Source: Escherichia coli (GTDB taxonomy: Bacteria; Pseudomonadota; Gammaproteobacteria; Enterobacterales; Enterobacteriaceae). From it: a stretch of DNA of 64,000 nucleotides. The notes beneath the pieces are model-generated. The model saw only the letters and a program-made list of their open reading frames with translations. It made no database searches and was not told the origin of the DNA. The stretch lies in the NCBI RefSeq assembly GCF_024502345.1, contig NZ_JALDNN010000001.1; one strand, written 5' to 3'. Positions 2,115 to 64,000 of this stretch are shown piece by piece. Each line of letters starts with the position of its first letter. Position 1 is the first letter of the stretch. The position numbers were made by a program, and so were the translations under genes.

Positions 2115-2149
2115 AGTTTAGTTAAGTTCTTTAGTATCTGCATTTACGA

Positions 2150-2863: not shown

Positions 2864-3026
2864 TCTTTTAGTTGTCCTTATAGAAAAATATTAATATTCA
2901 TCATGAATAAATTTAAACCCACGCATACAAAATACTTTTGTTTTTATGGATACGGAAAACGCTTCCGCTCGGCCATAAGGCATATTTTATACCTGGTACT
3001 TGTTAAGTGTCGTTTTTAGTAAGAAA

Positions 3027-3058
3027 AAAAATCCCGGCACCAGGCCGGGATCAGCAGG
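3027..3058 (-). terminator. Rho-independent terminator downstream of ybhL
   Basis: GC hairpin cccggcaccaggccggg followed by T-run on minus strand. Confidence 0.6.
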
Positions 3059-3068
3059 AAGAAGAGAA

Positions 3069-3773
3069 TTAACGACGATTGCCAAAAATTCGCAGCAACA
3101 TCAGGAACAGGTTGATGAAGTCCAGATACAAGGTTAACGCGCCAAGAATGGAATATTTGCGCAGGTTCGACGTGTCGCGAGTATCAATCTGCTCACCCAT
3201 ATTTTTCAATTTCTGAGTGTCATACGCCGTCAGTCCGACAAAGACAATCACGCCGATGTAGGTAACTGCCCACATCAATGCTTCGCTTTTCAGCCAGAAG
3301 TTGACCAGCGATGCCAGCACAATGCCGATTAACGCCATAAACAGCATATTGCCAAAGCCACTTAAATCGCGCTTCGTGGTGTAACCGTACAGGCTCATTG
3401 CGCCGAACATCCCGGCAGTAACGACGAAGGTACTGGCGATAGAAGCAGCGGTATAAACAATGAAAATACTGGAAAGCGTAAGACCCGTCAGCGCCGAATA
3501 AAGCATAAAGAGCATCGTCGTTACACCTGCGCTCAGCTTTTGAATCATCGCTGATAACACAATAACCAATGCTAATTGCGCGATGATCAGACCGATTAAA
3601 AAGACACGGTTAGTGAACAACAGCTCCATCACGGCCGCGGAATTAGCCGCATACCAGGCAACAAATGCGGTCAGCAACAAGCCAACGGTCATCCAGCCAT
3701 AGACTTGCGCCATATAAGTCTGCAAGCCAGCCCGGGGTTGTACAATTGAATCAGAACGTGGGAATCTGTCCAT
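3069..3773 (-). CDS. ybhL: Inner membrane protein YbhL (BAX inhibitor-1 family)
   Basis: ORF track 3069..3854; start placed at internal MDRFPRS to give 234 aa as remembered for K-12 YbhL. Confidence 0.85.
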   Translation of the reverse strand: MDRFPRSDSIVQPRAGLQTYMAQVYGWMTVGLLLTAFVAWYAANSAAVMELLFTNRVFLIGLIIAQLALVIVLSAMIQKLSAGVTTMLFMLYSALTGLTLSSIFIVYTAASIASTFVVTAGMFGAMSLYGYTTKRDLSGFGNMLFMALIGIVLASLVNFWLKSEALMWAVTYIGVIVFVGLTAYDTQKLKNMGEQIDTRDTSNLRKYSILGALTLYLDFINLFLMLLRIFGNRR

Positions 3774-3908
3774 GACGATCTCCTGAAGATATAAGGAATA
3801 TCTTAAGGATACTGCAAAATGATGAGGCTGTGCATCGACGCAGCGTAAACGCATGTACTGAGCGGTGAAATTGCCGGACGCAGCGGTGCCTTATCCGGCT
3901 AACAAAAA

Positions 3909-4361
3909 CTACCAGCGTTTTGCCGCCTGCTGATCGCTCTCCCGAGCTTCGACCCAGCGGTCGCCCTCCGGCGTGGCTTCGCGCTTCCAGAACGGTGCGC
4001 GGGTTTTGAGATAATCCATAATAAACTGCCCGGCTTCAAACGCACTGCTGCGATGCGCACTGGTGACACCGACAAAAACGATTTCATCGCCCGGCCATAA
4101 TTCCCCGATGCGGTGAATCACCGTGACGCGCCCCAGCGGCCAGCGGTTACGCGCTTCATCGACAATTTCTGCCAGTGCTTTTTCAGTCATCCCCGGATAG
4201 TGTTCGAGGGTTAATGCTTTGACGCTGTCGCCCAGGTTATGGTTGCGCACCTTACCGGTAAAGGTGACTACCGCACCGTCTTCGTCACGCTCCGCCAGCC
4301 ACGGGTACTCTTCTCCTACGCTGAACGGCTGCGGACCAACAACAATTTTGGTTTCTGCCAT
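3909..4361 (-). CDS. moaE: Molybdopterin synthase catalytic subunit MoaE
   Basis: 150 aa; sequence matches remembered MoaE; last gene of moaABCDE. Confidence 0.95.
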   Translation of the reverse strand: MAETKIVVGPQPFSVGEEYPWLAERDEDGAVVTFTGKVRNHNLGDSVKALTLEHYPGMTEKALAEIVDEARNRWPLGRVTVIHRIGELWPGDEIVFVGVTSAHRSSAFEAGQFIMDYLKTRAPFWKREATPEGDRWVEARESDQQAAKRW

Positions 4362-4362
4362 C

Positions 4363-4608
4363 TTAACCTCCGGTTACCGGCGGGAAGAAAGCTACTTCGT
4401 CGCCGTCAGTCAGCGGATGGTCAAAACTCACCAGCGTCTGGTTGACGGCAGCCAGTAATTTGCCATCTTCCAGCGCCAGCGCCCAGCGATCGCTCTGCGC
4501 AGCCAGGTGCTGGCGTAACGCTTCAACGGTTGGGAAATCCGCAGCCACTTCGGTTGCATCTGTTCCTACCAACTCGCGCACCTGGGCGAAAAAAAGAACT
4601 TTAATCAT
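4363..4608 (-). CDS. moaD: Molybdopterin synthase sulfur-carrier subunit MoaD
   Basis: 81 aa from [13 protein letters not shown] to C-terminal GG; ORF-track start is an upstream alternative start overlapping moaC. Confidence 0.9.
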
Positions 4609-5086
4609 CCGCTTCCACCTTAAAGTCACCCGACTTGCCGCCGCTCTTCGCCAGCAAACGTACCGGACCAATCACCATATCTTTTTGCACCGCTTTGCAC
4701 ATGTCATAAATGGTCAGCGCCGCCACGGAGGCCGCGGTTAACGCTTCCATTTCGACACCGGTTTTCCCGGTCAGGCGGCATAAGGTTTCTATACGCACCC
4801 GATTGTGCTCCGGCTCGGCCTGTAAATTGACTTCAACTTTGCTGAGCATCAGCGGATGACAGAGCGGGATCAGATCCCAGGTGCGTTTTGCCGCCTGAAT
4901 ACCGGCAATACGCGCAGTGGCAAATACGTCGCCTTTGTGGTGGCGACCATCAATAATCATCGCCAGCGTCTCGCTGCGCATGGTGACAAAGGCTTCCGCC
5001 CGCGCTTCACGCACGGTTTCCGCTTTGGCGGAGACATCCACCATGTGCGCTTCGCCAGCGGCGTTGATATGGGTCAGTTGCGACAT
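4601..5086 (-). CDS. moaC: Cyclic pyranopterin monophosphate synthase MoaC
   Basis: 161 aa; matches remembered MoaC; 8 nt overlap with moaD. Confidence 0.95.
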
Positions 5087-5088
5087 AC

Positions 5089-5601
5089 TTATTTCTTCAA
5101 ATGTGGATGGAAATTACACGGACGCGTACGGGCATCCAGCTGCGGCGCGATGATATTTTCCCATGCGGTACGGCACGCTTTGGTCGAACCCGGCATGGCG
5201 AAAATCAGCGTTTTGTTGGCGACGCCCGCTACCGCACGAGATTGCAACGTGGAAGTGCCAATCTCTTCAAAAGACAACATCCGGAACACTTCACCAAAAC
5301 CTTCAACTTCACGGTCGAACAACGGCAGCAATGCTTCGGGAGCCTGATCACCTTCCGTCAGGCCAGTACCACCCGTAATCAATACCACTTGTACATCGTC
5401 GCTGGCGATCCACGCAGATACCTGAGCGCGAATAGCGTAGCGGTTTTCTTTCACAATGGCTTTATCGACAACGTGATGGCCCGCTTCTTGCGCCGAATCG
5501 CGCAGATAGTGACCGGAGGTATCGTCTTCTTCACCGCGACGATTAGAAACCGTAAGAATAGCAATACGGGTCGGGATAAATTCAGTGCTTACCTGACTCA
5601 T
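5089..5601 (-). CDS. moaB: Molybdenum cofactor biosynthesis protein MoaB
   Basis: 170 aa MogA/MoaB-fold ORF in operon position. Confidence 0.95.
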
Positions 5602-5622
5602 CTGATCTCTCCTTTTGACGTT

Positions 5623-6612
5623 TTAGCCGCCAATGTACGATAAGTTTTGCGTAATACCGGTGTTGTTTTGATGCAGGAAATGGGTCTGTTTCTTCTCCCG
5701 CAGCGCCGCTGAAATACGCGCTTCCAGCGCCTGTTGCTGGGTATCGTCTTCCAGCAGATCGCGCAGGTTAACGCCGCCTTCACCAAACAGGCAGAGATGG
5801 AGTTTACCAATGGAGGAAACGCGCAGGCGGTTGCAAGTGGCGCAGAAGTCTTTTTCATACGGCATGATAAGGCCAATCTCTCCGGCGTAATCTGGATGGC
5901 AAAAGACTTGCGCGGGACCGTCGCTGCGTTGACGTAATTGGTGGATCCAGCCGCGACGCAGTAGCTCGTCACGCAGAACCTGACCAGAGATGTGATGCTT
6001 ACGGAAGAGCTCGCTGCCCTCGCCCGTTTCCATCAGTTCGATGAAACGCAGCTGGATAGGGCGATGCTGGATCCAGTTCAGAAAGGTGTCGAGCTGGTGA
6101 TGATTAACATCACGCATCAGCACGGTATTGACTTTGACCTTCTCAAAACCGGCCTCAAATGCAGCATCAATCCCCGCCATGACCTGGTTGAATTTATCCT
6201 GCCCGGTAATAGCGTGAAACTGGCGGGCGTCCAGACTGTCGACACTGACGTTAATGCCAGTAAGTCCCGCATCGCGCCAGTTCGCCACATCGCGTTCCAG
6301 ACGGTAACCATTGGTGGTGACCGCAATCTGGCGGATAGCGTCGTTTTCCCGCACAGCGGCGATGATATCGGTAAAGTCGCGGCGTAAAGACGGCTCACCG
6401 CCTGTCAGGCGCACTTTTTCGGTGCCCAGACTGGCGAAGGCGCGCGTAACCCGGCGAATTTCATCGACGGTAAGAAAGCCTTTATTGGTGACGCCGCTCG
6501 GTTTGTAGCCATCCGGCAGGCAGTAGGTGCAACGAAAGTTACACACATCGGTAATCGACAGGCGCAAGTAGTAAAACTTACGCGCAAATGCATCAGTCAG
6601 TTGTGAAGCCAT
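5623..6612 (-). CDS. moaA: GTP 3',8-cyclase MoaA (radical SAM)
   Basis: CNFRCTYC radical-SAM cysteine motif; start set at MASQLTDAF (329 aa) rather than upstream alternative start. Confidence 0.95.
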
Positions 6613-6760
6613 GTACACCTTTCCAGATACGGGAGGCGAAGTCATTTCTTCCTTCGCCCTGGTGGCAATCTTTACGAGCATTGTCACGGCCAAAGCACCG
6701 TATCAGTTGACCCAGGTGCAGAGGCTAGAGTGTTTAGTGGTTATGCCGATACTAGCGTGT
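6613..6760 (-). promoter_or_regulatory. moaA 5' leader; expected location of the molybdenum-cofactor (Moco) riboswitch
   Basis: Long structured leader directly upstream of moaA ending in ..ggaaaggtgtacATG; Moco RNA is known in E. coli moaA leader; exact boundaries not determined. Confidence 0.55.
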
Positions 6761-6948
6761 AAATGAGATTTTTACCATCCACACTTTCGCTATGTAATCA
6801 TGTATATAGCGTCATGATCGTGCTATTTCGCTACAGAATAAGGGAAAATGGCGGTTTTACTTTGATATACATCATCAGGGAGGCATAGCGTGCATCGTCC
6901 TTTAGAGGTAGAAGAAAATAGTTTGTATCCTCAATATTGGCAGGTTAA

Positions 6949-7917
<969 letters not shown>

Positions 7918-7974
7918 CGGAAATCCGAAGGAAAATTCCGGCTTCCTATTGAAGACAAAGTGCGCGTTGTTTAT

Positions 7975-8071
7975 GCCGGATGCGGCGTGAACGCCTTATC
8001 CGGCCTACAAACCGCGCAAATTCAATATATTGCGGAGAAAATGTAGGCCTGATAAGCGTAGCGCATCAGGC
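7975..8071. repeat. REP elements (pair) between ybhK and uvrB
   Basis: gccggatgcggcgtgaacgccttatccggcctac and gtaggcctgataagcgtagcgcatcaggc match the E. coli REP consensus family. Confidence 0.7.
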
Positions 8072-8108
8072 TGTTTTCCGTTTGTCATCAGTCTTCTTCG
8101 CTATCCTG

Positions 8109-10130
8109 TTACGATGCCGCGATAAACAGCTCACGCAGCTGATGCAACTGGTCACGAATTTGCGCCGCTTCTTCGAACTCCAGATTCTGCGCGTGTTGCA
8201 TCATCAACCCTTCCAGCTCATGGATTTTCTGCTGCAACGCTTTAGGCGACATATCCATCGGCACATTATCCGGCTCAACAATCGGGCGCGATTTTCCTCT
8301 GCCCTTCGCTTTGGTTTTGGCAATGTTCTGCCCCAGCGCCAGGATATCGACCACTTTCTTGTTCAAGCCTTGCGGCGTAATGCCGTGTTCCTCGTTGTAC
8401 TTCTGCTGTTTCTCACGGCGACGTTCGGTTTCGCCAATCGCTTTCGCCATTGATGGGGTGATCTTATCGCCGTAGAGAATCGCTTTACCGTTAACGTTAC
8501 GTGCCGCACGACCAATGGTCTGGATCAACGAACGTTCGGAACGCAGGAAGCCTTCTTTGTCAGCGTCGAGGATCGCCACCAGCGACACTTCCGGCATATC
8601 CAGACCTTCGCGCAGTAAGTTGATCCCTACCAGCACGTCGAACTCACCCAGACGCAAGTCGCGGATAATCTCCATACGTTCGACGGTGTCGATATCTGAG
8701 TGAAGATAACGCACGCGCTCGCCATGTTCTTCGAGATATTCGGTAAGATCTTCCGCCATCCGCTTGGTCAGTGTGGTGACCAGTACGCGTTCGTTAATTG
8801 CCGCTCGCTGACGAATCTCCGAAAGAAGATCATCAACCTGTGTCGCCACCGGCCGCACTTCGATAATCGGGTCAAGCAATCCGGTTGGACGCACCACCTG
8901 ATCCACCACATCGCCGCCGGATTTTTCCAGCTCATAATTACCCGGCGTCGCCGAAACATAGATGGTTTGCGGCGCTAATGCTTCGAACTCTTCAAACTTA
9001 AGCGGACGGTTATCCAGCGCTGATGGCAGGCGGAAGCCGTACTCCACCAGTGTCTCTTTACGCGCCCGGTCACCGCGATACATGCCGCCAATTTGTGGAA
9101 TGGTGACGTGAGATTCATCGACCACCAGCAGCCCATCAGCAGGGAGGTAATCAAACAGCGTCGGCGGTGGCTCACCCGGTCCACGACCGGAGAGGAAGCG
9201 CGAGTAGTTTTCAATCCCCGAACAGTAGCCCAGCTCGTTCATCATCTCCAGATCAAACTGGGTACGCTGGGTCAGCCGCTGCTCTTCCAGCAGTTTGTTG
9301 TTTTCCAACAGCACTTTGCGTCTGGCGGCCAGCTCTTCTTTGATCTCCTCCATCGCCTGTACGATGCGCTCGCGCGGTGTGACGTAGTGCGTTTTCGGGT
9401 AGATGGTAAAACGTGGAATAGTGGAAACAATCTGCCCGGTCAGCGGGTCAAATAACGACAATCGTTCCACTTCCTCGTCAAACAGTTCCACGCGAAGTGC
9501 AATGTCATCCGATTCTGCCGGGAAGATATCTATCACCTCGCCACGAACGCGGAAAGTACCACGCTGGAATGCTTGATCATTACGAGCGTATTGCAGCTCC
9601 GCCAGTCGGCGCAGAATCGCGCGCTGATCGATAATCATACCGACCGTGAGATGGAGCATCATCTTGAGATATAAATCAGGATCGCCCAGACCATAAATCG
9701 CGGAAACAGACGCCACCACAACCACATCACGCCGCTCCAGCATCGCTTTGGTGGCGGATAAACGCATCTGCTCAATATGTTCGTTAACCGAGGCATCTTT
9801 CTCAATGAAAGTGTCGGAACTCGGTACATAGGCTTCCGGCTGATAGTAGTCGTAGTAGGAGACGAAATACTCCACCGCGTTTTCCGGGAAGAACTCTTTC
9901 ATTTCGCCATACAGCTGGGCCGCCAGCGTTTTGTTGGGCGCAAGTACCATGGTTGGGCGCTGAAGGTCAGCAATGACATTGGCAATGGTGAAGGTTTTCC
10001 CTGAGCCAGTCACGCCAAGTAACGTCTGGTGCGCCAGGCCATCTTCCAGCCCCTCTTCGAGACGTCGAATCGCCTCTGGCTGATCGCCAGAAGGTTTAAA
10101 AGCGGAATTCAGTTTGAACGGTTTACTCAT
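8109..10130 (-). CDS. uvrB: Excinuclease ABC subunit B
   Basis: 673 aa; Walker A GSGKT and helicase motifs; matches remembered UvrB. Confidence 0.97.
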
Positions 10131-10204
10131 GAGTCGCTACCTGAAGGAGTTGGGCGGGCAGGTATGTAATTTTACTCGTCGTACTTAATTATGCCAACAA
10201 ATTA

Positions 10205-10224
10205 TACTGGATAAAAAAACAGTT
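10205..10224 (-). promoter_or_regulatory. LexA operator (SOS box) of uvrB
   Basis: tactggataaaaaaacagtt = CTG-N10-CAG palindrome about 75 bp upstream of uvrB start. Confidence 0.8.
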
Positions 10225-10708
10225 CATCACCATAATATTTCTGATACAGCGTAAACTCCGCTGTCAATCATGAGCAAAATTTACTCTGTGGCGAGATAAA
10301 ACTCCGGCCTTACCGGGTTATCCCCAAAGCAACGGCTTTTTTAACATTTGTCAAGATGAGTGATGACAGTTTTATGGCAAGAGATGCCTGTTCAGTGACT
10401 GCCATTGCATTTATCTAACCAGTTAAAAAATAAAAGATATTTCTTTGAGCCGTCTTTAACGCCAATTCGCGTGCAAGCCGCGTATTCTCTCGCTTGCCTC
10501 GTGTTTTCTAACTCTAATACACATGGTTATCCACAGGAATAGTGGATAACTGTCTCCAGCCCCTATCCCCCGCCGCCTGGGCAATTCCCACATTCGCCGC
10601 ATGAGGCGGAAGTAAAATTTTTTTCGTGATTATTTTAGAATTTAATTGGTTAAATTGCAGTCAATCGAAGACGCGATCTCGCTCGCAATTTAACCAAATA
10701 CAGGATGG

Positions 10709-11386
10709 CTACAACAAGGCAAGGTTTATGTACTTTCCGGTTGCCGCATTTTCTGGATTTTCTGCAAGCCAGGGGATCTCTCCCAGCAGCGGCGCGGGAA
10801 TCATGCGGGTGAGCGTGGTTATATATTCAGCGTGACGTTTTCCAGGAGGCGTGACATCATTCGCCACCCAACCCGCCAGCGTCAGTCCGGCGTGTTGTAT
10901 TGCCTGTGCAGTCAACATCGCGTGATTAATACAGCCGAGTTTCACGCCAACCACCAGTATTACCGGCAGTTGTTCCTGTGTTACCCAATCCGCAAAAGTG
11001 AAAGTGTCAGAAAGGGGCGTAAACCAGCCGCCAGCGCCTTCCACTAACACCCAGTCAGCCTGTTGTTCAAGCGCGCGTAATCCGGAGCTCATTACCGATG
11101 ATTCTATCGGCCTGCCCTCTTGCGCGCTGATGATGTGCGGTGAGGTGGGTTCTGCGAAGGTGTAAGGATTTACTGTTGCGTAATCCAGCTGCAGGCTGCT
11201 GTTGCGCTGTAACGCCAGCGCGTCGCTATTGCGTAAACCTTCCGGGGTCTTTTCGCTGCCAGAGGCGACCGGTTTATAACCTGCCGTCCGGTAGCCTGCT
11301 GCCTTTGCGGCTTGTAAAAGTGCACAACTGGCGACAGTTTTCCCCACTTCGGTATCCGTTCCGGTGACAAAATAACGTTTACTCAC
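10709..11386 (-). CDS. bioD: Dethiobiotin synthetase
   Basis: 225 aa with GTG start ([18 protein letters not shown]-loop); ORF track begins 2 codons upstream at TTG. Confidence 0.93.
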
Positions 11387-12134
11387 GAGCAATCACTCCC
11401 AAAAAAAGATGATACGTCAGAGGATATCGCCCCTGCTGTTGCGGCCAGGCCAGTTGCAATCGCTGCAACTGCGAACGCGTTAATATTCGCGGGTCGCGCC
11501 CTTCATGAAGATGCGTGGCACCGATGCCTTTCAGCGAACGCATGGCACTGAGCGCATCATCAAACCACAGCGTGATGGGCTGAATATGATGTTGATAATG
11601 CACGCCGTTCAGCGACTGTTCGATTTCATCTGGCGGTAAAAAGCGATTAGCATGCGGACGCTCGTCCACCGCCTGCCACGCCTGATGCAGTTCGGGTAAG
11701 GATCCCTGCACCAGCGTGGTAAACGCGACCACGCCTTTGGGGCGCACCACCCGATACAGCTCGCGGAGTGCCGTGGATAAATTACCGCACCACTGCACTG
11801 CGAGATTGCTCCATGCAAGATCGAACGTCGCAGTCGCTAACGGCAGGGATTCGATATCTCCCGCCAGATAATGGTCTGCGGCATCCTTCTGGCGTGCCTG
11901 AACAAGCATTGGCGGCGAGAGATCTAAGGCCGTCACCTGCGCGTGACGTTCCCGCCAGTGGCGGCTCATCCAGCCAGGTCCACAACCCGCGTCCAGTACG
12001 TGGGTGTATTTACGCTGTGGGAGCATTGCCAGTAAGACGTCAGCACTCTGGCGCTGTAGATCTGCGTGTTGCTCATAGAGTGCGGCTGCCCGACCAAATG
12101 CCGCTGCAATGGCTTGTTTATTAACCGTTGCCAT
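11379..12134 (-). CDS. bioC: Malonyl-ACP O-methyltransferase
   Basis: 251 aa from [17 protein letters not shown]; SAM-MTase motif LDAGCGPG; 8 nt overlap with bioD. Confidence 0.93.
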
Positions 12135-13275
12135 GCAGCACCTCCAGCAGACGGTCGATATCCTGCATTTCATGCGCTGCGGTTAGCGTTAAGCGCAGTC
12201 GCGCAGTACCAGCGGGTACGGTTGGCGGGCGAATCGCCGTGACCCAGCAGCCTTGCTGGCGCAGTTTTTCTGCCAGTTGTAACGCACGGCTGTTATCACC
12301 GACGATCAATGGCTGGATGGCGCTGCATGAATCAGCCAGCGTAAACGGCAAATCCTGTACTCCGGCACGAAAACGCGCAATGAGTGACACCAGTTTTTCG
12401 CGCCGTGCATCCCCCTCATCACGGCGAATGACCGCCAGTGACGCACGTAATGCCTGCGCCTGAGCGGGCGGCATACTGGTGCTGTAGATAAGGTGGCGGG
12501 CGAATTGCAGCAGATAATCCGCCACCGTACTTGAGCAAAGCACCGCAGCCCCACTGACGCCAAATCCTTTGCCAAAAGTCACTACCAGCAATTCTGGTTT
12601 TACCTTTTGCAGCCAGCAGCTGCCGCGCCCCTGCTCCCCGATAACGCCCGTGCCGTGGGCATCATCGACCATCAACCAGCCATTGTGCTGTTGCGTTACC
12701 TGCTGGATTTCCGCCAGTGGCGCACTATCGCCGTCCATGCTGAACACGCCTTCTGTCACCACCAGTTGCTGCCCCGGACAGGGGGAAGCAAGCAATCGCG
12801 CCAAATGAGTGACATCGTTATGAGCAAAACGGCGAAGCTGCGACGGGCTTAAACTGGCAGCTTCCAGCAATGAGGCATGGCTAAGCCGGTCGGCAGCAAT
12901 ACGGTCCTCTTTCGCCATCATCGCGGCAATAACTGCCTGATTAGCGGCAAAACCAGAGATAAACAGCAGTGCCCGCGAATAGCCAAGCCACTCGGCCAGC
13001 TCTTCTTCCAGTGCCTGATGCACCACGCTATAACCGCTGACGTGACCGGAGCCGCCGCTACCGATGCCAAATTGCTCCGCCCCCTGCTGCCAGGCACGGA
13101 TAATTTGCGGATGATGGCTTAAACCTAAATAATCGTTACTGGAAAAGTTCAGATACTGGCGATCATCCGCCACCAGCCAGCGTCCGGCTCCTTGCGCCAC
13201 CGGATAACGGCGACGCAGGGCATCGGCAGCACGCCGCGCATCGAGCGCCGCGTTGATTTTCTCCTGCCAGCTCAT
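12121..13275 (-). CDS. bioF: 8-amino-7-oxononanoate synthase
   Basis: 384 aa PLP-dependent acyltransferase; overlaps bioC and bioB. Confidence 0.95.
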
Positions 13276-14312
13276 AATGCTGCCGCGTTGTAATATTCGT
13301 CGGTGTCCGGGGTCATCAGCGCCTGTTCAAGACGTTGCTGTTGTTCGTTATCCCCTGCCAGCACGGCAGTTTGCTGCGGATTTAGCCCCAGTTTGCGGAA
13401 CAGTTGCAGGTCTTTATCTTCTTCCGGATTCGGCGTGGTCAGCAGTTTGCAACCGTAGAAAATCGAGTTTGCGCCTGCCATAAAGCACATCGCCTGAGTC
13501 TGTTCGTTCATCTGCTCGCGTCCGGCAGAAAGGCGCACGTAAGAGGTTGGCATCATGATCCGCGCGACCGCAATGGTGCGAATAAAATCAAAGGCATCGA
13601 CATCATCGTTATCGGCAAGCGGCGTGCCTTTCACCTTCACTAGCATGTTGATTGGCACGCTTTCCGGCGGCGTCGGCAGGTTTGCCAGTTGCAGCAATAA
13701 TCCGGCGCGATCTTTTACCGTTTCGCCTAAGCCCACAATGCCGCCAGAACAGACTTTGATCCCGGCATCGCGCACTTTTTCCAGCGTATCGAGGCGTTCC
13801 TGATAAGTGCGGGTGGTGATGATATTGCCGTAAAACTCCGGCGAGGTGTCCAGGTTGTGGTTGTAGTAATCCAGCCCGGCGTTCGCGAGGCGCTGCGCCT
13901 GAGATTCACTCAACGTGCCCAGCGTCATACACGCCTCCAGCCCTAAATCTTTTACCCCCTGCACCATCTGCTCCAGGTACGGCATATCGCGTTCGTTGGG
14001 ATTCTTCCACGCCGCGCCCATGCAAAAACGCGTCGATCCCGCCGCTTTCGCTTTGCGCGCCGACTCCAGCACCTGTTCAACTTCCATCAACCGCTCGGCT
14101 TCCAGCCCGGTTTTATAGCGCGAGCTTTGCGGGCAATATTTGCAATCTTCCGGACAAGCTCCGGTCTTAATCGACAGCAACGTGCTGACCTGGACCTGAC
14201 GAGGATCAAAATGCTGGCGATGGACCTGCTGCGCTTCAAACAGCAGATCCAGCAACGGTTTTTCAAATAATTCTGTGACTTGCGACAAGGTCCAGCGTGG
14301 GCGGTGAGCCAT
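13272..14312 (-). CDS. bioB: Biotin synthase (radical SAM)
   Basis: 346 aa; [10 protein letters not shown] radical-SAM motif. Confidence 0.95.
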
Positions 14313-14356
14313 GGGGCTTCTCCAAAACGTGTTTTTTGTTGTTAATTCGGTGTAGA

Positions 14357-14392
14357 CTTGTAAACCTAAATCTTTTCAATTTGGTTTACAAG
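14357..14392. promoter_or_regulatory. bioO: bio operator (BirA binding site) between divergent bioB and bioA
   Basis: Near-perfect palindrome cttgtaaacc-taaatcttttcaattt-ggtttacaag. Confidence 0.85.
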
Positions 14393-14398
14393 TCGATT

Positions 14399-15688
14399 AT
14401 GACAACGGACGATCTTGCCTTTGACCAACGCCATATCTGGCACCCATACACATCCATGACCTCCCCGCTGCCGGTTTATCCGGTGGTGAGCGCCGAAGGT
14501 TGCGAGCTGATTTTGTCTGACGGCAGACGCCTGGTTGACGGAATGTCGTCCTGGTGGGCGGCGATCCACGGCTACAATCACCCGCAGCTTAATGCGGCGA
14601 TGAAGTCGCAAATTGATGCCATGTCGCATGTGATGTTTGGCGGTATCACCCATGCGCCAGCCATTGAGCTGTGCCGCAAACTGGTGGCGATGACGCCGCA
14701 ACCGCTGGAGTGCGTTTTTCTCGCGGACTCCGGTTCCGTAGCGGTGGAAGTGGCGATGAAAATGGCGTTGCAGTACTGGCAAGCCAAAGGCGAAGCGCGC
14801 CAGCGTTTTCTGACCTTCCGCAATGGTTATCATGGCGATACCTTTGGCGCGATGTCGGTGTGCGATCCGGACAACTCAATGCACAGCCTGTGGAAAGGCT
14901 ATCTGCCAGAAAACTTGTTTGCTCCCGCCCCACAAAGCCGTATGGATGGCGAATGGGATGAGCGCGATATGGTGGGCTTTGCCCGCCTGATGGCGGCGCA
15001 TCGTCATGAAATCGCGGCGGTGATCATTGAGCCGATTGTCCAGGGCGCAGGCGGGATGCGCATGTACCATCCGGAATGGTTAAAACGAATCCGCAAAATA
15101 TGCGATCGCAAAGGTATCTTGCTGATTGCCGACGAGATCGCCACTGGATTTGGTCGTACCGGGAAACTGTTTGCCTGTGAACATGCAGAAATCGCGCCGG
15201 ACATTTTGTGCCTCGGTAAAGCCTTAACCGGCGGCACAATGACCCTTTCCGCCACACTCACCACGCGCGAGGTTGCAGAAACCATCAGTAACGGTGAAGC
15301 CGGTTGCTTTATGCATGGGCCAACTTTTATGGGCAATCCGCTGGCCTGCGCGGCAGCAAACGCCAGCCTGGCGATTCTCGAATCTGGCGACTGGCAGCAA
15401 CAGGTGGCGGATATTGAAGTACAGCTGCGCGAGCAACTTGCCCCCGCCCGTGATGCCGAAATGGTTGCCGATGTGCGCGTACTGGGGGCCATTGGCGTGG
15501 TCGAAACCACTCATCCGGTGAATATGGCGGCGCTGCAAAAATTCTTTGTCGAACAGGGTGTCTGGATCCGGCCTTTTGGCAAACTGATTTACCTGATGCC
15601 GCCCTATATTATTCTCCCGCAACAGTTGCAGCGTCTGACCGCAGCGGTTAACCGCGCGGTACAGGATGAAACATTTTTTTGCCAATAA
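14399..15688 (+). CDS. bioA: Adenosylmethionine-8-amino-7-oxononanoate aminotransferase
   Basis: 429 aa from [17 protein letters not shown]; ORF-track start upstream is an alternative start inside the operator region. Confidence 0.95.
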
Positions 15689-15746
15689 CGAGAAGTCCGC
15701 GTGAGGGTTTCTGGCTACACTTTCTGCAAACAAGAAAGGAGGGTTC

Positions 15747-16223
15747 ATGAAACTCATCAGTAACGATCTGCGCGATGGCGATAAATTGCCGCATCGTCAT
15801 GTCTTTAACGGCATGGGTTACGATGGCGATAATATTTCACCGCATCTGGCGTGGGATGATGTTCCTGCGGGAACGAAAAGTTTTGTTGTCACCTGCTACG
15901 ACCCGGATGCGCCAACCGGCTCCGGCTGGTGGCACTGGGTAGTTGTTAACTTACCCGCTGATACCCGCGTATTACCGCAAGGGTTTGGCTCTGGTCTGGT
16001 AGCAATGCCAGACGGCGTTTTGCAGACGCGTACCGACTTTGGTAAAACCGGGTACGATGGCGCAGCACCGCCGAAAGGCGAAACTCATCGCTACATTTTT
16101 ACCGTTCACGCGCTGGATATAGAACGTATTGATGTCGATGAAGGTGCCAGCGGCGCGATGGTCGGGTTTAACGTTCATTTCCACTCTCTGGCAAGCGCCT
16201 CGATTACTGCGATGTTTAGTTAA
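15747..16223 (+). CDS. ybhB: PEBP-family protein YbhB
   Basis: 158 aa; CYDPDAPTGSGWWHW PEBP signature. Confidence 0.9.
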   Translation: MKLISNDLRDGDKLPHRHVFNGMGYDGDNISPHLAWDDVPAGTKSFVVTCYDPDAPTGSGWWHWVVVNLPADTRVLPQGFGSGLVAMPDGVLQTRTDFGKTGYDGAAPPKGETHRYIFTVHALDIERIDVDEGASGAMVGFNVHFHSLASASITAMFS

Positions 16224-16374
16224 TCACTCTGCCAGATGGCGCAATGCCATCTGGTATCACTTAAAGGTATTAAAAACAACTTTTTGTCTTTTTACCTTCC
16301 CGTTTCGCTCAAGTTAGTATAAAAAAGCAGGCTTCAACGGATTCATTTTTCTATTTCATAGCCCGGAGCAACCT

Positions 16375-17658
16375 GTGAACACATTTTCAGTTTCCCGTCT
16401 GGCGCTGGCATTGGCTTTTGGCGTGACGCTGACCGCCTGTAGCTCAACCCCGCCCGATCAACGTCCTTCTGATCAAACCGCGCCTGGTACCTCTTCTCGC
16501 CCGATTCTGTCGGCAAAAGAAGCGCAGAATTTCGATGCTCAACACTATTTTGCATCCCTGACACCAGGTGCTGCAGCGTGGAATCCTTCCCCGATTACCC
16601 TGCCTGCGCAACCTGACTTTGTTGTCGGCCCGGCGGGCACTCAAGGTGTAACGCATACCACGATTCAGGCGGCGGTAGATGCGGCAATTATCAAGCGTAC
16701 CAACAAGCGCCAGTATATTGCCGTGATGCCTGGTGAGTATCAGGGAACGGTATATGTCCCTGCCGCTCCGGGTGGAATTACTCTGTACGGTACAGGTGAA
16801 AAACCGATTGATGTGAAGATTGGGCTTTCCCTTGATGGTGGCATGAGCCCTGCCGACTGGCGTCACGACGTCAACCCGCGCGGCAAATATATGCCAGGTA
16901 AACCAGCGTGGTATATGTACGATAGCTGCCAGAGCAAACGCAGCGACAGTATCGGTGTTCTCTGCTCTGCGGTCTTCTGGTCACAAAACAATGGCCTGCA
17001 ACTGCAAAATCTGACCATCGAAAACACGCTGGGCGATAGCGTAGATGCAGGTAACCATCCGGCGGTGGCACTGCGTACTGATGGTGACCAGGTACAGATT
17101 AACAACGTTAACATTCTCGGTCGTCAGAACACCTTCTTTGTCACCAACAGCGGTGTGCAGAACCGTCTGGAAACGAATCGTCAGCCGCGTACGCTGGTGA
17201 CCAACAGCTACATTGAAGGGGATGTGGATATCGTTTCTGGTCGCGGCGCAGTGGTGTTCGATAACACCGAATTCCGCGTGGTGAACTCACGTACTCAGCA
17301 AGAAGCGTATGTGTTTGCACCGGCTACGCTGTCCAACATTTACTACGGTTTCCTCGCCGTAAACAGCCGTTTCAATGCTTTCGGTGATGGTGTGGCGCAA
17401 CTGGGCCGCTCGCTGGATGTTGATGCCAATACCAACGGTCAGGTGGTGATCCGTGATAGCGCCATCAACGAAGGTTTTAACACGGCTAAACCGTGGGCCG
17501 ATGCGGTGATCTCTAATCGTCCGTTTGCGGGTAATACCGGCAGCGTAGATGATAACGACGAAATACAGCGCAATCTGAATGACACTAACTACAACCGCAT
17601 GTGGGAATACAATAACCGCGGCGTGGGTAGTAAAGTGGTTGCAGAGACGAAGAAGTAA
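16375..17658 (+). CDS. ybhC: Outer-membrane lipoprotein YbhC (pectinesterase-like fold)
   Basis: 427 aa; lipobox LTAC near N-terminus. Confidence 0.9.
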   Translation: MNTFSVSRLALALAFGVTLTACSSTPPDQRPSDQTAPGTSSRPILSAKEAQNFDAQHYFASLTPGAAAWNPSPITLPAQPDFVVGPAGTQGVTHTTIQAAVDAAIIKRTNKRQYIAVMPGEYQGTVYVPAAPGGITLYGTGEKPIDVKIGLSLDGGMSPADWRHDVNPRGKYMPGKPAWYMYDSCQSKRSDSIGVLCSAVFWSQNNGLQLQNLTIENTLGDSVDAGNHPAVALRTDGDQVQINNVNILGRQNTFFVTNSGVQNRLETNRQPRTLVTNSYIEGDVDIVSGRGAVVFDNTEFRVVNSRTQQEAYVFAPATLSNIYYGFLAVNSRFNAFGDGVAQLGRSLDVDANTNGQVVIRDSAINEGFNTAKPWADAVISNRPFAGNTGSVDDNDEIQRNLNDTNYNRMWEYNNRGVGSKVVAETKK

Positions 17659-41671: not shown

Positions 41672-41858
41672 AGATAGTCGAATGGTGGGGAAAAGTCACT
41701 CGAATTACGTATGAGATGCCGAATGCCACACTTTGCGTCTTATTCCTCCGACGTAAAGTTGTTTACGCAGCAAGCGCGGAGTATGTCATCAGGGTCAAGA
41801 ATTGAAATTGAGAGATGCCTGAATAGCAAAAAAGCGCCTTTAGGGCGCTTTTTTACAT

Positions 41859-41978
41859 TGGTGGGTCGTGCAGGATGACTCGCTTCGCTCGCCCTTCGGG
41901 CCGTCGCCGCGAGCGGCTCCGTTGTTTCGCTGCGCTCAACTCAAACCTGCTGCAGGTTCGAATCTTTGAGTATCGCAG
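41859..41978. repeat. tRNA-derived fragment block distal to lysQ
   Basis: 17 nt copy of tRNA-Lys 3' end (tggtgggtcgtgcagga) plus inverted T-arm-like gcaggttcgaatc; the 41823-41877 segment duplicates the terminator + tRNA 3' end at 41989-42031. Confidence 0.6.
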
Positions 41979-41984
41979 ATAGCA

Positions 41985-42010
41985 AAAAAGCGCCTTTAGG
42001 GCGCTTTTTT
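41985..42010 (-). terminator. Rho-independent terminator of the lysT tRNA operon
   Basis: aaaaaagcgcc-ctaa-aggcgctttttt hairpin directly 3' of last tRNA; second copy at about 41825-41850. Confidence 0.75.
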
Positions 42011-42014
42011 ACAT

Positions 42015-42090
42015 TGGTGGGTCGTGCAGGATTCGAACCTGCGACCAATTGATTAAAAGTCAACTGCTCTACCAACTGAGCTAACGACCC
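42015..42090 (-). tRNA. lysQ: tRNA-Lys (anticodon UUU)
   Basis: Exact 76 nt match to remembered E. coli tRNA-Lys incl. CCA; anticodon loop CUUUUAA. Confidence 0.95.
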
Positions 42091-42123
42091 CTTGCGGGAT
42101 TATGCTGCTTTAATCATTCAGGA

Positions 42124-42199
42124 TGGTGGGTCGTGCAGGATTCGAACCTGCGACCAATTGATTAAAAGTCAACTGCTCTACCAACTGAGCTAACGACCC
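42124..42199 (-). tRNA. lysZ: tRNA-Lys (anticodon UUU)
   Basis: Identical 76 nt tRNA-Lys copy. Confidence 0.95.
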
Positions 42200-42247
42200 A
42201 TACGGGTGTTACCTGAAAGATTTTTACTCGGGGCCAATCTTTAAGAT

Positions 42248-42323
42248 TGGTGGGTCGTGCAGGATTCGAACCTGCGACCAATTGATTAAAAGTCAACTGC
42301 TCTACCAACTGAGCTAACGACCC
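42248..42323 (-). tRNA. lysY: tRNA-Lys (anticodon UUU)
   Basis: Identical 76 nt tRNA-Lys copy. Confidence 0.95.
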
Positions 42324-42326
42324 GAG

Positions 42327-42402
42327 TGGTGGGTGATGACGGGATCGAACCGCCGACCCCCTCCTTGTAAGGGAGGTGCTCTCCCAGCTGAGCTAATCAC
42401 CC
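42327..42402 (-). tRNA. valZ: tRNA-Val (anticodon UAC)
   Basis: 76 nt match to remembered tRNA-Val(UAC); 3 nt spacer to lysY. Confidence 0.95.
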
Positions 42403-42453
42403 GATACTGCGCTAGATACTACAAACTACTTCCACCGAACCCACCGTAATTAG

Positions 42454-42529
42454 TGGTGGGTCGTGCAGGATTCGAACCTGCGACCAATTGATTAAAAGTC
42501 AACTGCTCTACCAACTGAGCTAACGACCC
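42454..42529 (-). tRNA. lysW: tRNA-Lys (anticodon UUU)
   Basis: Identical 76 nt tRNA-Lys copy. Confidence 0.95.
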
Positions 42530-42531
42530 GG

Positions 42532-42607
42532 TGGTGGGTGATGACGGGATCGAACCGCCGACCCCCTCCTTGTAAGGGAGGTGCTCTCCCAGCTGAGCTA
42601 ATCACCC
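42532..42607 (-). tRNA. valT: tRNA-Val (anticodon UAC)
   Basis: 76 nt tRNA-Val copy; 2 nt spacer to lysW. Confidence 0.95.
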
Positions 42608-42642
42608 GATACTACGCTGGATACTACAACTAACTATGTTAG

Positions 42643-42703
42643 TGGTGGGTCGTGCAGGATGACTCGACTTCGTCTCGCCCTTCGGGCCGTTGCTGATGCA
42701 ACG
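42643..42703 (-). repeat. tRNA-Lys 3'-end-derived pseudo-tRNA fragment in lysT-valT spacer
   Basis: tggtgggtcgtgcagga + tgactcg(a)cttcg(t)ctcgcccttcgggccg, near-identical to the fragment at 41859. Confidence 0.6.
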
Positions 42704-42742
42704 TTATCCTTCACGTTTTACTACCGCTTCCACCTTAGCGAT

Positions 42743-42818
42743 TGGTGGGTCGTGCAGGATTCGAACCTGCGACCAATTGATTAAAAGTCAACTGCTCTAC
42801 CAACTGAGCTAACGACCC
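42743..42818 (-). tRNA. lysT: tRNA-Lys (anticodon UUU)
   Basis: Identical 76 nt tRNA-Lys copy; first gene of operon. Confidence 0.95.
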
Positions 42819-42982: not shown

Positions 42983-43774
42983 TTACATCGCGTTCAGACG
43001 TTTTTGTGCCTGTTTAGCGCCATCAGTACCAGGGTATTTACTGATAACCTGCTGGTATACGGCTTTCGCTTTTGCGGTGTCACCTTTGTCCTGCATGATG
43101 ACGCCGACTTTAAACATCGCATCTGCAGCCTTTGGTGACTTCGGATAGTTTTTCACTACCGAAGCAAAATAGTACGCCGCATCATCTTTTTTACCCTTGT
43201 TGTAGTTTAACTGACCCAGCCAATAATTGGCGTTTGGCAGGTAAGTTGAATCAGGGTAATTTTTGATGAAATTCTGAAATGCCACCATTGCGTCATCCTG
43301 GCGGGATTTATCCTGCACCAGCGCAATAGCTGCATTGTAATCCGTGTTTGCATCACCGCTTTTCACCGGCGCGCCAGCATTCGCAGTACCAGCATCAGCT
43401 GTCGGCGTCGTTGATGCCGCCGCACCGCTTTGATCGACGCTGGTTGATTGCGCCGCTGCACCACCGCTGCTGAGGCTATCGATCTGCAACAGGATCTGCT
43501 TTTGCCGCTCCACGACCTGATTCAGTTGATACTGATTTTCCTGAATCTGACCACGCAGGGAATCAATATCGGATTGATTATCAGAGAGTTGTTGCTGGAG
43601 TTGGGTTAAAAGCTGGCTGTGAGCATTAGAAATACGCTCAAGTTGAGTGACGCGGTCTTCGACCGAGCCTGAGCCGACACTACTGATTGGTGCCTGAGCA
43701 AAAGCGGCCCAGGGGGCCGCTATACCAACCAGTAACGACAGACTCAATAGTTGATGTCTGAAGTTACTGCTCAT
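42983..43774 (-). CDS. cpoB: Cell division coordinator CpoB (YbgF), TPR protein
   Basis: 263 aa; signal peptide, coiled-coil, C-terminal TPR. Confidence 0.93.
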   Translation of the reverse strand: MSSNFRHQLLSLSLLVGIAAPWAAFAQAPISSVGSGSVEDRVTQLERISNAHSQLLTQLQQQLSDNQSDIDSLRGQIQENQYQLNQVVERQKQILLQIDSLSSGGAAAQSTSVDQSGAAASTTPTADAGTANAGAPVKSGDANTDYNAAIALVQDKSRQDDAMVAFQNFIKNYPDSTYLPNANYWLGQLNYNKGKKDDAAYYFASVVKNYPKSPKAADAMFKVGVIMQDKGDTAKAKAVYQQVISKYPGTDGAKQAQKRLNAM

Positions 43775-43783
43775 GCAATTCTC

Positions 43784-44329
<546 letters not shown>

Positions 44330-61084: not shown

Positions 61085-61378
61085 GTGCACCTGATGGAGG
61101 AAAAAATGAAGAAAATAAGTTTAACCACGATGATTCTTTTGGCGCTGGTACTTGGAATGATTATCGGCGTAGTGCTCAATAACACTGTTTCACCGGAAAC
61201 AGCAAAACTCTATGCGCAAGAAATATCGATATTCACGACGATTTTCTTACGACTGATAAAAATGATTATCGCTCCGTTAGTGGTCTCTACCCTGGTGGTA
61301 GGTATTGCTAAAATGGGAGATGCCAAAGCCCTTGGTCGTATTTTTTCTAAAACACTCTTTTTATTTATTTGCGCCTCA
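61085..61378 (+). pseudogene. 5' fragment (98 codons) of a DAACS-family (GltP/DctA-like) dicarboxylate/amino acid:cation symporter gene, truncated by IS1
   Basis: [30 protein letters not shown] matches the GltP N-terminal signature; reading frame runs into IS1 and stops after 8 IS1-encoded codons. Confidence 0.85.
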
Positions 61379-61433
61379 GGTGATGCTGCCAACTTACTGA
61401 TTTAGTGTATGATGGTGTTTTTGAGGTGCTCCA

Positions 61434-61709
61434 GTGGCTTCTGTTTCTATCAGCTGTCCCTCCTGTTCAGCTACTGACGGGGTGGTGCGTAACGGCAAAA
61501 GCACCGCCGGACATCAGCGCTATCTCTGCTCTCACTGCCGTAAAACATGGCAACTGCAGTTCACTTACACCGCTTCTCAACCCGGTACGCACCAGAAAAT
61601 CATTGATATGGCCATGAATGGCGTTGGATGCCGGGCAACCGCCCGCATTATGGGCGTTGGCCTCAACACGATTTTCCGCCATTTAAAAAACTCAGGCCGC
61701 AGTCGGTAA
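61434..61709 (+). CDS. insA: IS1 protein InsA
   Basis: 91 aa; zinc-finger CPSC..CSHC; matches remembered InsA. Confidence 0.95.
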
Positions 61710-62131
61710 CCTCGCGCATACAGCCGGGCAGTGACGTCATCGTCTGCGCGGAAATGGACGAACAGTGGGGATACGTCGGGGCTAAATCGCGCCAGCGCTG
61801 GCTGTTTTACGCGTATGACAGGCTCCGGAAGACGGTTGTTGCGCACGTATTCGGTGAACGCACTATGGCGACGCTGGGGCGTCTTATGAGCCTGCTGTCA
61901 CCCTTTGACGTGGTGATATGGATGACGGATGGCTGGCCGCTGTATGAATCCCGCCTGAAGGGAAAGCTGCACGTAATCAGCAAGCGATATACGCAGCGAA
62001 TTGAGCGGCATAACCTGAATCTGAGGCAGCACCTGGCACGGCTGGGACGGAAGTCGCTGTCGTTCTCAAAATCGGTGGAGCTGCATGACAAAGTCATCGG
62101 GCATTATCTGAACATAAAACACTATCAATAA
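61628..62131 (+). CDS. insB: IS1 transposase InsB (expressed as InsAB' by -1 frameshift)
   Basis: 167 aa ORF in -1 frame relative to insA. Confidence 0.93.
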
Positions 62132-62146
62132 GTTGGAGTCATTACC

Positions 62147-62555
62147 AATCGCCGTTATTAGCTAAAGAATGAATATTAACAATAATATCGGGATGTAACT
62201 TTGTGAATTCATGTAAATTTGGGATTAACCAGTGGGTACTAAAAGTAGGATTAACGGCAAGTTCAATAACCTGAACCGTAGGCTGCCAGGTCATAATGGT
62301 ATTGGTATCGCGTTCCAGCTTATTTAATGTTTCTTTTACTATCCCCAGGTAATACTTCCCTGCATCATTAAGAAAAATGCGTTTTTTAGAGTGTGAAAAT
62401 AACGGAGTACGTAAAAATTCCTCCAGCGCACTTACTTGTCTGAATACTGCACTTTGGGTTAACGCTAACTCCTCTGCCGCTCTGGTATAACTTTCATGAC
62501 GTGCGACGACCTCAAAAGTCACCAGCAGTTCCGTTTTAGGTATTTTCCCTCGCAT
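62147..62555 (-). pseudogene. LysR-family regulator, 3'-truncated by IS1 (only about 135 N-terminal codons remain)
   Basis: LysR HTH (TFEVVARHESYTRAAEELALTQSAVFRQVSALE); last codon and stop are supplied by the IS1 end. Confidence 0.85.
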
Positions 62556-63220: not shown

Positions 63221-64000
63221 TTATTTCAGAACAGTTTTCAGTGCTTCACCGATATCCGCCAGGCTGCGAACGGTTTTCACGCCTGCGGCTTCCAGAGCAG
63301 CGAATTTCTCATCCGCAGTCCCTTTCCCACCGGCAATGATGGCACCCGCGTGGCCCATACGTTTGCCTTTCGGCGCAGTCACACCAGCGATGTAACCCAC
63401 AACTGGCTTGGTAACGTGCTCTTTGATGTACGCAGCTGCTTCTTCTTCAGCGCTACCGCCGATCTCACCGATCATCACGATCGCTTCGGTCTGCGGATCT
63501 TTTTCGAACATTTCGAGAATGTCGATAAAGTTAGAGCCAGGGATCGGGTCACCGCCGATACCGACACAGGTCGACTGACCGAAACCGTAATCCGTGGTCT
63601 GTTTAACCGCTTCATAGGTCAGTGTACCGGAACGGGAAACGATACCCACTTTACCCGGTTTGTGAATGTGACCCGGCTGGATACCGATTTTGCATTCACC
63701 CGGAGTGATAACGCCCGGGCAGTTCGGGCCGATCATACGAACGCCGGCTTCGTCCAGTTTCACTTTCACAGTCAGCATATCCAGCGTCGGGATGCCTTCA
63801 GTGATGGTGATAATCAGTTTGATGCCTGCATCAATAGCTTCCAGAATGGAGTCTTTGCAGAACGGTGCTGGTACGTAGATAACAGAAGCGGTAGCGCCAG
63901 TAGCAGCAACAGCTTCACGCACGGTGTTGAACACCGGCAGGCCGAGGTGGGTAGTACCGCCTTTACCTGGGGTTACGCCGCCAACCATTTTAGTGCCGTA
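63221..64000 (-). CDS. sucD: Succinyl-CoA synthetase alpha subunit, 5'-partial (start beyond window end)
   Basis: Frame open to window edge; matches remembered SucD through C-terminal ..ALKTVLK. Confidence 0.95.

Follow-up and report, generated by a model that had tools for sequence, protein, structure and literature searches.

Two tRNA-Lys-like fragments within and behind the lysT operon of this Escherichia coli window (the whole stretch of 64,000 nucleotides that was analysed) are best explained, with a probability of about 0.9, as ancestral members of the tRNA-linked repeat (TLR) family, RtT in Rfam (RF00391), that is, as co-oriented modules of about 100-120 nt which lie behind a stable-RNA gene and end in a copy of the last 18-19 nt of that gene. 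They are of an already known type and unremarkable for a family that has been on record since 1978 and that standard pipelines annotate. The suggestion of the original prediction that they might be ancestral pseudo-tRNA spacers of the kind known from E. coli tRNA operons was right. TLRs were first seen in tyrT in 1978, their 3' end matches that of the preceding tRNA or rRNA gene exactly over 18-19 bp, and 22 of them are found in K-12 at ten loci, with one to five at each (PMC8144298). The published view is that they have no known function, an early claim of a role in amino-acid starvation having been withdrawn (PMC8144298).

Using ARAGORN on the window, we found five tRNA-Lys(UUU) genes, identical to one another, and two tRNA-Val(UAC) genes, all on the minus strand, between 42015 and 42818, in the gene order of the K-12 lysT operon. 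The features of this region, in the direction of transcription, are the following:

42743-42818, minus strand: lysT, tRNA-Lys(UUU), first gene of the operon (ARAGORN; Rfam tRNA model, 79.2 bits; K-12 order)
42643-42742, minus strand: slot 1 TLR, short form, directly 3' of lysT (Rfam RtT, 60.2 bits)
42608-42642, minus strand: native 35-nt spacer upstream of valT, constant with or without a TLR
42532-42607, minus strand: valT, tRNA-Val(UAC) (ARAGORN)
42454-42529, minus strand: lysW, tRNA-Lys(UUU) (ARAGORN)
42403-42453, minus strand: empty TLR slot 2, 51-nt spacer (in K-12, a 98-nt TLR directly 3' of lysW)
42327-42402, minus strand: valZ, tRNA-Val(UAC) (ARAGORN)
42248-42323, minus strand: lysY, tRNA-Lys(UUU) (ARAGORN)
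42200-42247, minus strand: empty TLR slot 3, 48-nt spacer (98-nt TLR in K-12 and 7 other sampled strains)
42124-42199, minus strand: lysZ, tRNA-Lys(UUU) (ARAGORN)
42091-42123, minus strand: empty TLR slot 4, 33-nt spacer (99-nt TLR in K-12, REL606 and FDAARGOS_1280)
42015-42090, minus strand: lysQ, tRNA-Lys(UUU), final gene of the operon (ARAGORN)
41979-42014, minus strand: operon terminator T1 (hairpin 41984-42010, AAAAAAGCGCC-CUAAA-GGCGCUUUUUU; fold of -19.1 kcal/mol, z -6.7)
41859-41978, minus strand: trailer TLR, long form, between both terminators (Rfam RtT, 46.7 bits; annotated by PGAP as "RtT sRNA" in relatives)
41823-41858, minus strand: terminator copy T2 (hairpin 41828-41854, from folding and from the 54-nt repeat)

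The trailer TLR and T2 together form one tandem unit of 156 bp. Neither of these minus-strand terminators was called by the terminator scanner and both are clear from folding, the miss being probably due to an A/U extension of the stem that uses up the U tract. A Rho-independent terminator, identical to that of valU, has been described for the lysT operon (PMC4176162).

The repeated letters that first drew attention to this region are real. The 17-mer TGGTGGGTCGTGCAGGA occurs seven times in the window, in the five tRNA-Lys genes and at 41859 and 42643, and was not found on the opposite strand of the window. The original prediction of a 17-nt tRNA-Lys 3' end followed by a similar tail at these two places is confirmed and can be slightly extended, the identity with the tRNA 3' end being really of 18 nt (ATCCTGCACGACCCACCA in RNA sense, at 41859-41876 and 42643-42660); the extra copies are identical to each other over 24 bases and continue to match over 47 of 49 aligned columns, with two 1-nt gaps, as far as ...GGGCCGT. 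A 54-nt block combining the terminator and the tRNA 3' end, ATAGCAAAAAAGCGCCTTTAGGGCGCTTTTTTACATTGGTGGGTCGTGCAGGAT, is 100% identical between 41823-41876 and 41979-42032, with a spacing of 156 and 102 nt in between; the duplication had therefore been correctly recognised, but its second copy had been placed at 41989, 10 nt away from its true start at 41979. Finally, the T-arm-like piece said to lie in opposite orientation within 41859-41978 is present: GCAGGTTCGAATC is found on the plus strand only at 41952-41964, and its reverse complement is found in all five Lys genes. An exact match of 13 nt within 120 nt has a chance expectation of about 4e-6, and none of these tRNA-Lys-derived repeats can be explained by chance.

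Position, 3' end, structured core and covariance score all place both fragments in the TLR family. Both are on the same strand as the operon and belong to it, 42643-42742 beginning with the base next to lysT and 41859-41978 following lysQ and its terminator, and both end in ATCCTGCACGACCCACCA, with 18 of 18 nt identical to the 3' end of tRNA-Lys. The hairpin core is complete in the slot 1 copy (CGTTGC-ATCA-GCAACG-GCCCGAAGGG), and the trailer copy keeps ACGGCCCGAAGGGCGAGCGAAGCGAGTCA with a different first hairpin; as this core is not part of the tRNA-derived 18 nt, the Rfam matches are unlikely to be due to those 18 nt alone. According to the RtT covariance model, for which the gathering score is 45, the two loci score 60.2 bits (42643-42811) and 46.7 bits (41859-41984); the first match runs into lysT and takes lysT sequence for the 5' half of the model, and the second is marginal with respect to the threshold, its closing helix being mostly unpaired in the Rfam alignment. 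An "RtT sRNA" is annotated by PGAP/RefSeq at the trailer position in MEI003, in K-12 AB1157 and in other strains.

The common TLR layout consists of a 5' segment that pairs with the copied 3' end, three small conserved hairpins and the 3'-end copy itself. In slot 1 the hairpins are CGUUGC-AUCA-GCAACG, GCCC-GAA-GGGC and GAC-GAAG-UC, preceded by a 5' segment with a D-arm-like remnant, and the element folds at -34.7 kcal/mol (z -2.77) with the helices GUGAAGGAU:AUCCUGCAC and GGUGG:CCACC enclosing the three hairpins. In the trailer, GAUUCGAACCUGC (plus strand 41952-41964) is a T-arm copied in inverse orientation and pairs with the 5' half of a T-arm in direct orientation, GCAGGUUUGAG, which has decayed slightly; this hairpin is followed by GAGCGCAGCGAAACAA, a divergent first hairpin, GCCC-GAA-GGGC, GC-GAAG-C and the 18-nt tRNA-Lys 3' end at 41859-41876. 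Long-form elements of every type show the order GAG-AACC-NNN, loop, NNN-GGUUCGA, then YCGAGCG and the core, in which GAG-AACC-NNN repeats the cognate T-arm in inverted form and pairs with NNN-GGUUCGA, the 5' half of a direct T-arm. This layout was read from examples, as an upstream window of 75 nt enters the tRNA gene and miscounts the short-form Lys copies as long. The inverted T-arm at 41952 is this family-wide feature in its least decayed state, and the Rfam alignment places it there.

The 5' strand of the closing helix is GUGAAGGAU in Lys-linked, GGGGAAGGAU in Tyr-linked and CAGGGGGGAU in Arg-linked elements, and in the Lys- and Tyr-linked ones it pairs best with the 3' end of its own tRNA (8.9 of 10 pairs for Lys, against at most 7.5 with others, and 9.2 for Tyr, against at most 8.4); Pro and Arg closing helices, the 3' strands of which are alike, do not distinguish the cognate strand from that of the other. 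Pairing in the third hairpin is kept across 76 stem/loop sequences, with a mean perfect stem of 4.15 bp compared to 2.93 +/- 0.16 bp after shuffling.

It could be argued that the fragments are plain tRNA-Lys pseudogenes, left over from tandem duplication, independently decayed and of no family, as several of their parts are derived from tRNA-Lys (the 18-nt 3' end, the T-arm half and, in some copies, the D-arm-like UGGUAGAG) and as strains have anywhere from 4 to 6 Lys genes. However, the core that is not derived from tRNA (CGUUGC-N-GCAACG, GCCCGRAGGG and the third hairpin) is common to elements linked to Tyr, Pro, Arg and 5S genes and is what the RtT model recognises; independent decay would not converge on such a core, which makes this explanation very improbable.

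Comparison with the K-12 lysT operon, as the original prediction had proposed, showed the same two elements at the same positions, the trailer element being identical to that of MG1655 over 120 of 120 nt, and three further TLRs in K-12 at the places where the spacers of the window are short. Each long spacer of K-12 consists, in transcription sense, of a 98-99 nt unit plus the short spacer of the window, the unit beginning directly after the Lys gene and ending in the 17/18-nt repeat. In the window, such units are present after lysT and lysQ and absent after lysW, lysY and lysZ. The RtT model finds five matches in the K-12 lysT operon and four in tyrT, and the former is presumably the five-member locus of the published count.

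We then parsed the architecture of the operon in 15 E. coli genomes. The native spacers of 35, 51, 48 and 33 nt are invariant in this set, and a TLR is either present or absent at each of the five slots, with its edges falling cleanly on the tRNA 3'-end repeat; the 156-bp trailer unit is present in 0, 1 or 2 copies and the Lys genes number 4 to 6, giving 13 different layouts among the 15 genomes. The slot 1 element is found in 10 of them, and AR_0077 and DCE7 have no TLR in any slot. Each slot has its own characteristic TLR 5' part, common to the strains in which that slot is filled, which indicates that the filled state is orthologous; an empty slot would, on these alignments, most simply be a deletion between direct repeats. 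Singleton mutations within E. coli are no less frequent in the 3' copies than elsewhere in the element, which argues against strong selection on these copies, even though they remain cognate over long times; the tRNA genes carry no such changes. The original prediction had opposed to an integrase origin a picture of identical fragments in all E. coli, K-12 included, with no inserted element; this picture is found in part, as slot occupancy varies between strains but it is only the repeat itself that varies. The block between the flanks of the operon measures from 711 to 1290 bp among the 59 genomes listed (996 bp here). The lysT operon is a structural hot spot, on which naive alignments fail and by which island finders keyed to tRNA 3'-end repeats can be misled.

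The same repeats had been proposed to be the footprint of a tRNA-targeting integrase, in other words attL/attR-type scars left when an element inserted in tRNA-Lys by a tyrosine integrase was later lost, leaving displaced tRNA 3' ends. The duplicated segment does extend from the T-loop to the CCA end, as is often the case in tRNA att sites, and the 54-nt direct repeats enclose DNA that looks foreign. By contrast, the 102 nt between these repeats hold no credible gene and only chance ORFs, the same elements are present in K-12, and the sequence adjoining the 3' copy is a conserved structured core that also accompanies Tyr, Pro, Arg and 5S genes across many genera, a distribution for which a single integrase is no explanation. 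Searching for an island with two 2-kb flanks from which the operon had been cut out, and taking flanks as joined when the gap was at most 2.5 kb, we found them joined in 5407 of 5425 complete E. coli genomes, which therefore have no island there. The flanks-only query was used because a 10-kb spanning query made only 112 genomes seem intact, the repeated tRNA genes causing the flank alignments to overlap on the query and to stay unjoined. One of the 18 exceptions was inspected: lysT is joined there to the rrnD leader beside yrdA, and another assembly of that strain is normal, so this case is a rearrangement or a misassembly and not an island. No intact element at the lysT operon was seen among the 5407 joined genomes and this inspected exception.

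The search for an integrase was equally negative, none being found in the roughly three quarters of the window checked with the annotation of a related genome and partial gene lists. Positions 16310-61378 are collinear with core genes of MEI003. The lambda-type integrase of MEI003 was considered as a candidate and rejected, since positions 1-16400 of the window correspond to the uvrB-bio-clsB core genome with no prophage genes listed. An IS1 is located at 61434-62131. In the phage collection searched, the 192-nt block occurs in no phage record and no attP matching the repeats was found, the only matches being two of 40 nt to the core, in unannotated fragments of less than 2 kb. The integrase footprint was thus not borne out, we regard an integrase origin as extremely unlikely, and these fragments should not count as evidence of a lost island.

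Members of the TLR family reach far beyond E. coli. Scanning one genome per species for the core CGTTGC-N3-5-GCAACGRCCCGNAGGG, we obtained at least 120 gammaproteobacterial loci, the matches listed including Enterobacterales, Orbales, Oceanospirillales, Pseudomonas, Stenotrophomonas and Marinobacter. Among these listed matches, 96 of 163 are followed within about 4-30 nt by a 3'-end copy of the nearest upstream tRNA (counted at 12 nt or more and mostly of 18-19 nt), the cognate tRNAs being Lys(UUU), Tyr(GUA), Pro(CGG/UGG/GGG) and Arg(ACG/CCG); many of the remaining ones adjoin the 3' side of 5S rRNA and end in AACTGCCAGGCAT. In a Pantoea, the orthologous Lys operon linked to cpoB has seven RtT matches, and Lys trailer arrays with the same period of 156 nt are found in Klebsiella and Pantoea. 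Together with the wide distribution of the core, these Lys-operon elements indicate that the elements at the lysT operon predate the genus.

The three-hairpin core might be, or have been, a small non-autonomous insertion module targeting the T-loop of tRNA gene copies (position 58/59) or the 3' region of 5S rRNA genes, in which case TLRs, including both of those described here, would be decayed landing sites and not simple duplication debris. In Citrobacter and Kosakonia, a near full-length tRNA-Tyr-like gene carries a module of about 68 nt exactly between GGTTCGA and AATCC of the T-loop; all tRNA-linked copies among the matches listed resume at T-loop position 58/59; in the long forms both cognate T-arm halves flank the module; and free-standing tandem repeats of the core, of about 74 nt, are found among the matches listed in Pectobacterium, Pseudomonas, Alcanivorax and Marinobacter. 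However, no transposase or other mobilising enzyme was found for the module, and we know of none. Moreover, the filled slots are orthologous within E. coli, where deletion explains the polymorphism, and all tRNAs involved have GGTTCGAATCCT, so that recombination between T-arms could spread the module without transposition. We consider such mobility doubtful; it concerns the origin of the family and is compatible with the explanation that we retain for its present state, namely ancestral TLR/RtT elements.

Small arginine-rich peptides, like the Tpr of the tyrT repeats, were also considered as the product of these elements, since the ORFs 41853-41939 (28 aa, MSAAKQRSRSRRRPEGRAKRVILHDPPM) and 42634-42714 (26 aa) read the core in the frame of K-12 tpr (…RRQRPEGRSAQR). 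Both ORFs start with TTG or GTG, however, and their richness in arginine is automatic with G+C-rich hairpins, while the stems covary as RNA helices and not as codons and the slots are dispensable in many strains. Coding of Tpr-like peptides at TLRs was rejected on account of these starts, of the helix covariation and of the dispensable slots, and is scarcely credible.

In K-12, the lysT operon gives a single transcript of more than 1100 nt that contains the long spacers; processing falls mainly to RNase P, which first removes the terminator just past the CCA, and RNase E cleaves the long spacers when RNase P is lacking (PMC4176162). The slot 1 element would be transcribed within this polycistronic precursor and cut out as a by-product. 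By analogy with the T1-TLR-T2 arrangement of rrnB (PMC8144298), the trailer element may be reached only by read-through of T1, and its transcript would end at T2 in the exact context of lysQ, CCA-AUG-terminator. Because a TLR reproduces this tRNA 3' context, the RNases responsible for tRNA maturation may also release its RNA. Copy number is likely to shift by homologous recombination or slippage between direct repeats, whether of 18 nt, of 54 nt or of the 76-nt tRNA genes, and the empty slots would mostly be losses. As the elements are partly or wholly missing in many strains (wholly in AR_0077 and DCE7), no essential role is expected for TLRs. For the window itself the significance of all this is small; the family-wide anatomy, with its cognate inverted T-arm, T-loop module, covarying helices and free-standing relatives of the core, leads to testable hypotheses.

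Several known systems can be compared with these elements. Like the attL/attR sites of tRNA genes, they have a tRNA 3' segment, starting in the T-loop, as a direct repeat; unlike them, they came with no element, integrase or island-bearing strain in the data searched, and the repeat adjoins a conserved structured module found behind several RNA genes. The 3'ETS-leuZ and other tRNA-operon spacer RNAs (Lalaouna 2015, cited in PMC8144298) are similar in being RNAs putatively released during precursor processing, but the sequence of 3'ETS-leuZ is unrelated to the Lys TLRs, for which no target or sponge activity is known. Closer are the rrA, rrB and rrF elements, found between T1 and T2 of rrnA, rrnB and rrnD (PMC8144298), where a TLR also lies between two terminators, to be reached, as would be the case here by analogy, by read-through; copies of the upstream RNA's 3' end lie about 150 bp apart (156 bp here) and the core, AACGTTGC-N-GCAACGGCCCGRAGGG, is the same. 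These elements differ in being linked to 5S rRNA, in having two different terminators where those of the window are identical, and in that their third and 5' hairpins have GGA loops and are bound in vitro by CsrA and Hfq (PMC8144298); tRNA-linked TLRs scored below 0.01 for CsrA binding in the same study (PMC8144298).

Compared with the TLR/RtT elements of the tyrT operon, those described here are linked to tRNA-Lys and not to tRNA-Tyr, the spacer copy is a short form without the T-arm hairpin, the trailer unit is of 156 bp and not of 178 bp and has its first hairpin replaced, and the scores of 47-60 bits are far from the 133-137 bits of the tyrT copies. The tyrT RNA was reportedly described by Egan and Landy in 1978, by Bösl and Kersten in 1991 and by Rudd in 1999, the last of whom is also said to have catalogued TLRs in that year. 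In all other respects compared, the two systems agree: the element lies directly behind a tRNA gene in an operon, has a hairpin core and a 3'-end copy of 18-19 nt that takes part in the closing helix, is repeated in tandem in the trailer, and has an Rfam score above the threshold.

The lysT operon, which in the window comprises five tRNA-Lys and two tRNA-Val genes, is a structural hot spot in E. coli, with 13 different layouts in a sample of 15 genomes (loci L007-L018 among them). The number of Lys genes per operon in this sample ranges from four to six, with six in E2348/69 and four in an O157-like strain, and strain 51489 is without one Val-Lys pair.

In one assembly of E. coli IH5 (NZ_CP168949.1; comparison locus L006, 5530-6000), lysT runs directly into a reverse-complemented rrn leader adjoining yrdA, and the remaining operon and nadA are therefore located elsewhere; another IH5 assembly (NZ_CP168269.1) has the normal arrangement, and the junction reflects an inversion or, alternatively, a misassembly. 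The lysT gene of K-12 AB1157 (L002, 3478-3553) has the 3' end ...ACGACTCACCA versus ...ACGACCCACCA in MG1655, a C-to-T difference at position 71 of the acceptor stem; the laboratory strain may truly carry this mutation, or the assembly may be wrong here. A 50-kb E. coli plasmid (NZ_CP098226.1, 20408-20599) carries tRNA-Val and tRNA-Lys genes with a 98% match to the lysT operon.

The related E. coli strain MEI003 carries a lambdoid prophage with an integrase and an excisionase adjoining ybhC (equivalent to about 16300 in the window), which has no match in the window. The prophage site seems to be empty in the strain of the window, since positions 1-16400 correspond to the uvrB-bio-clsB core genome and match contiguously in 5420 genomes. 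Collinearity of the window with MEI003 ends at 61378, and a dicarboxylate/amino acid:cation symporter gene, the N-terminal part of which lies at 61085-61405, is broken by a copy of IS1 with InsA and InsB frames (61434-62131). Past IS1 lie:

62142-62555, truncated fragment of a LysR-type regulator
63221-63988, sucD

In K-12 and Pantoea (L005, 1-128; L076, 256-394), the intergenic region between pal and cpoB is matched by the Rfam model for the CpoB/ybgF thermometer (RF02782), and the corresponding place in the window is about 43750-43900.

Outside E. coli, a tRNA-Tyr-like gene of almost complete length lies just 5' of the true tyrT in Kosakonia cowanii and in two Citrobacter genomes:

L047, about 9850-10030, minus strand
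L023, about 380-530
L053, about 1020-1180

The anticodon of this gene is GCA, not GUA, and the hairpin module of the tRNA-linked repeats (TLRs), about 68 nt long, interrupts its T-loop between GGTTCGA and AATCC. Pectobacterium, Pseudomonas and Alcanivorax carry the TLR core CGTTGC/GCAACG-GCCCGNAGGG in tandem repeats of about 74 nt that stand on their own:

L090, 3276-3448
L130, 1186-1283
L038, 3710-3809
L082, 6387-6489

Another hairpin of these repeats is A/U-rich, and the loops of a third contain GGA; at these four loci no tRNA lies nearby and no Rfam family reaches its gathering threshold.

Each of the two TLRs of the window contains a short arginine-rich ORF:

41853-41939, minus strand, 28 aa, TTG start
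42634-42714, minus strand, 26 aa, GTG start

Both ORFs take the conserved TLR core in the reading frame used by K-12 tpr, which is annotated as a "protamine-like protein", and have RPEGR in common with it.
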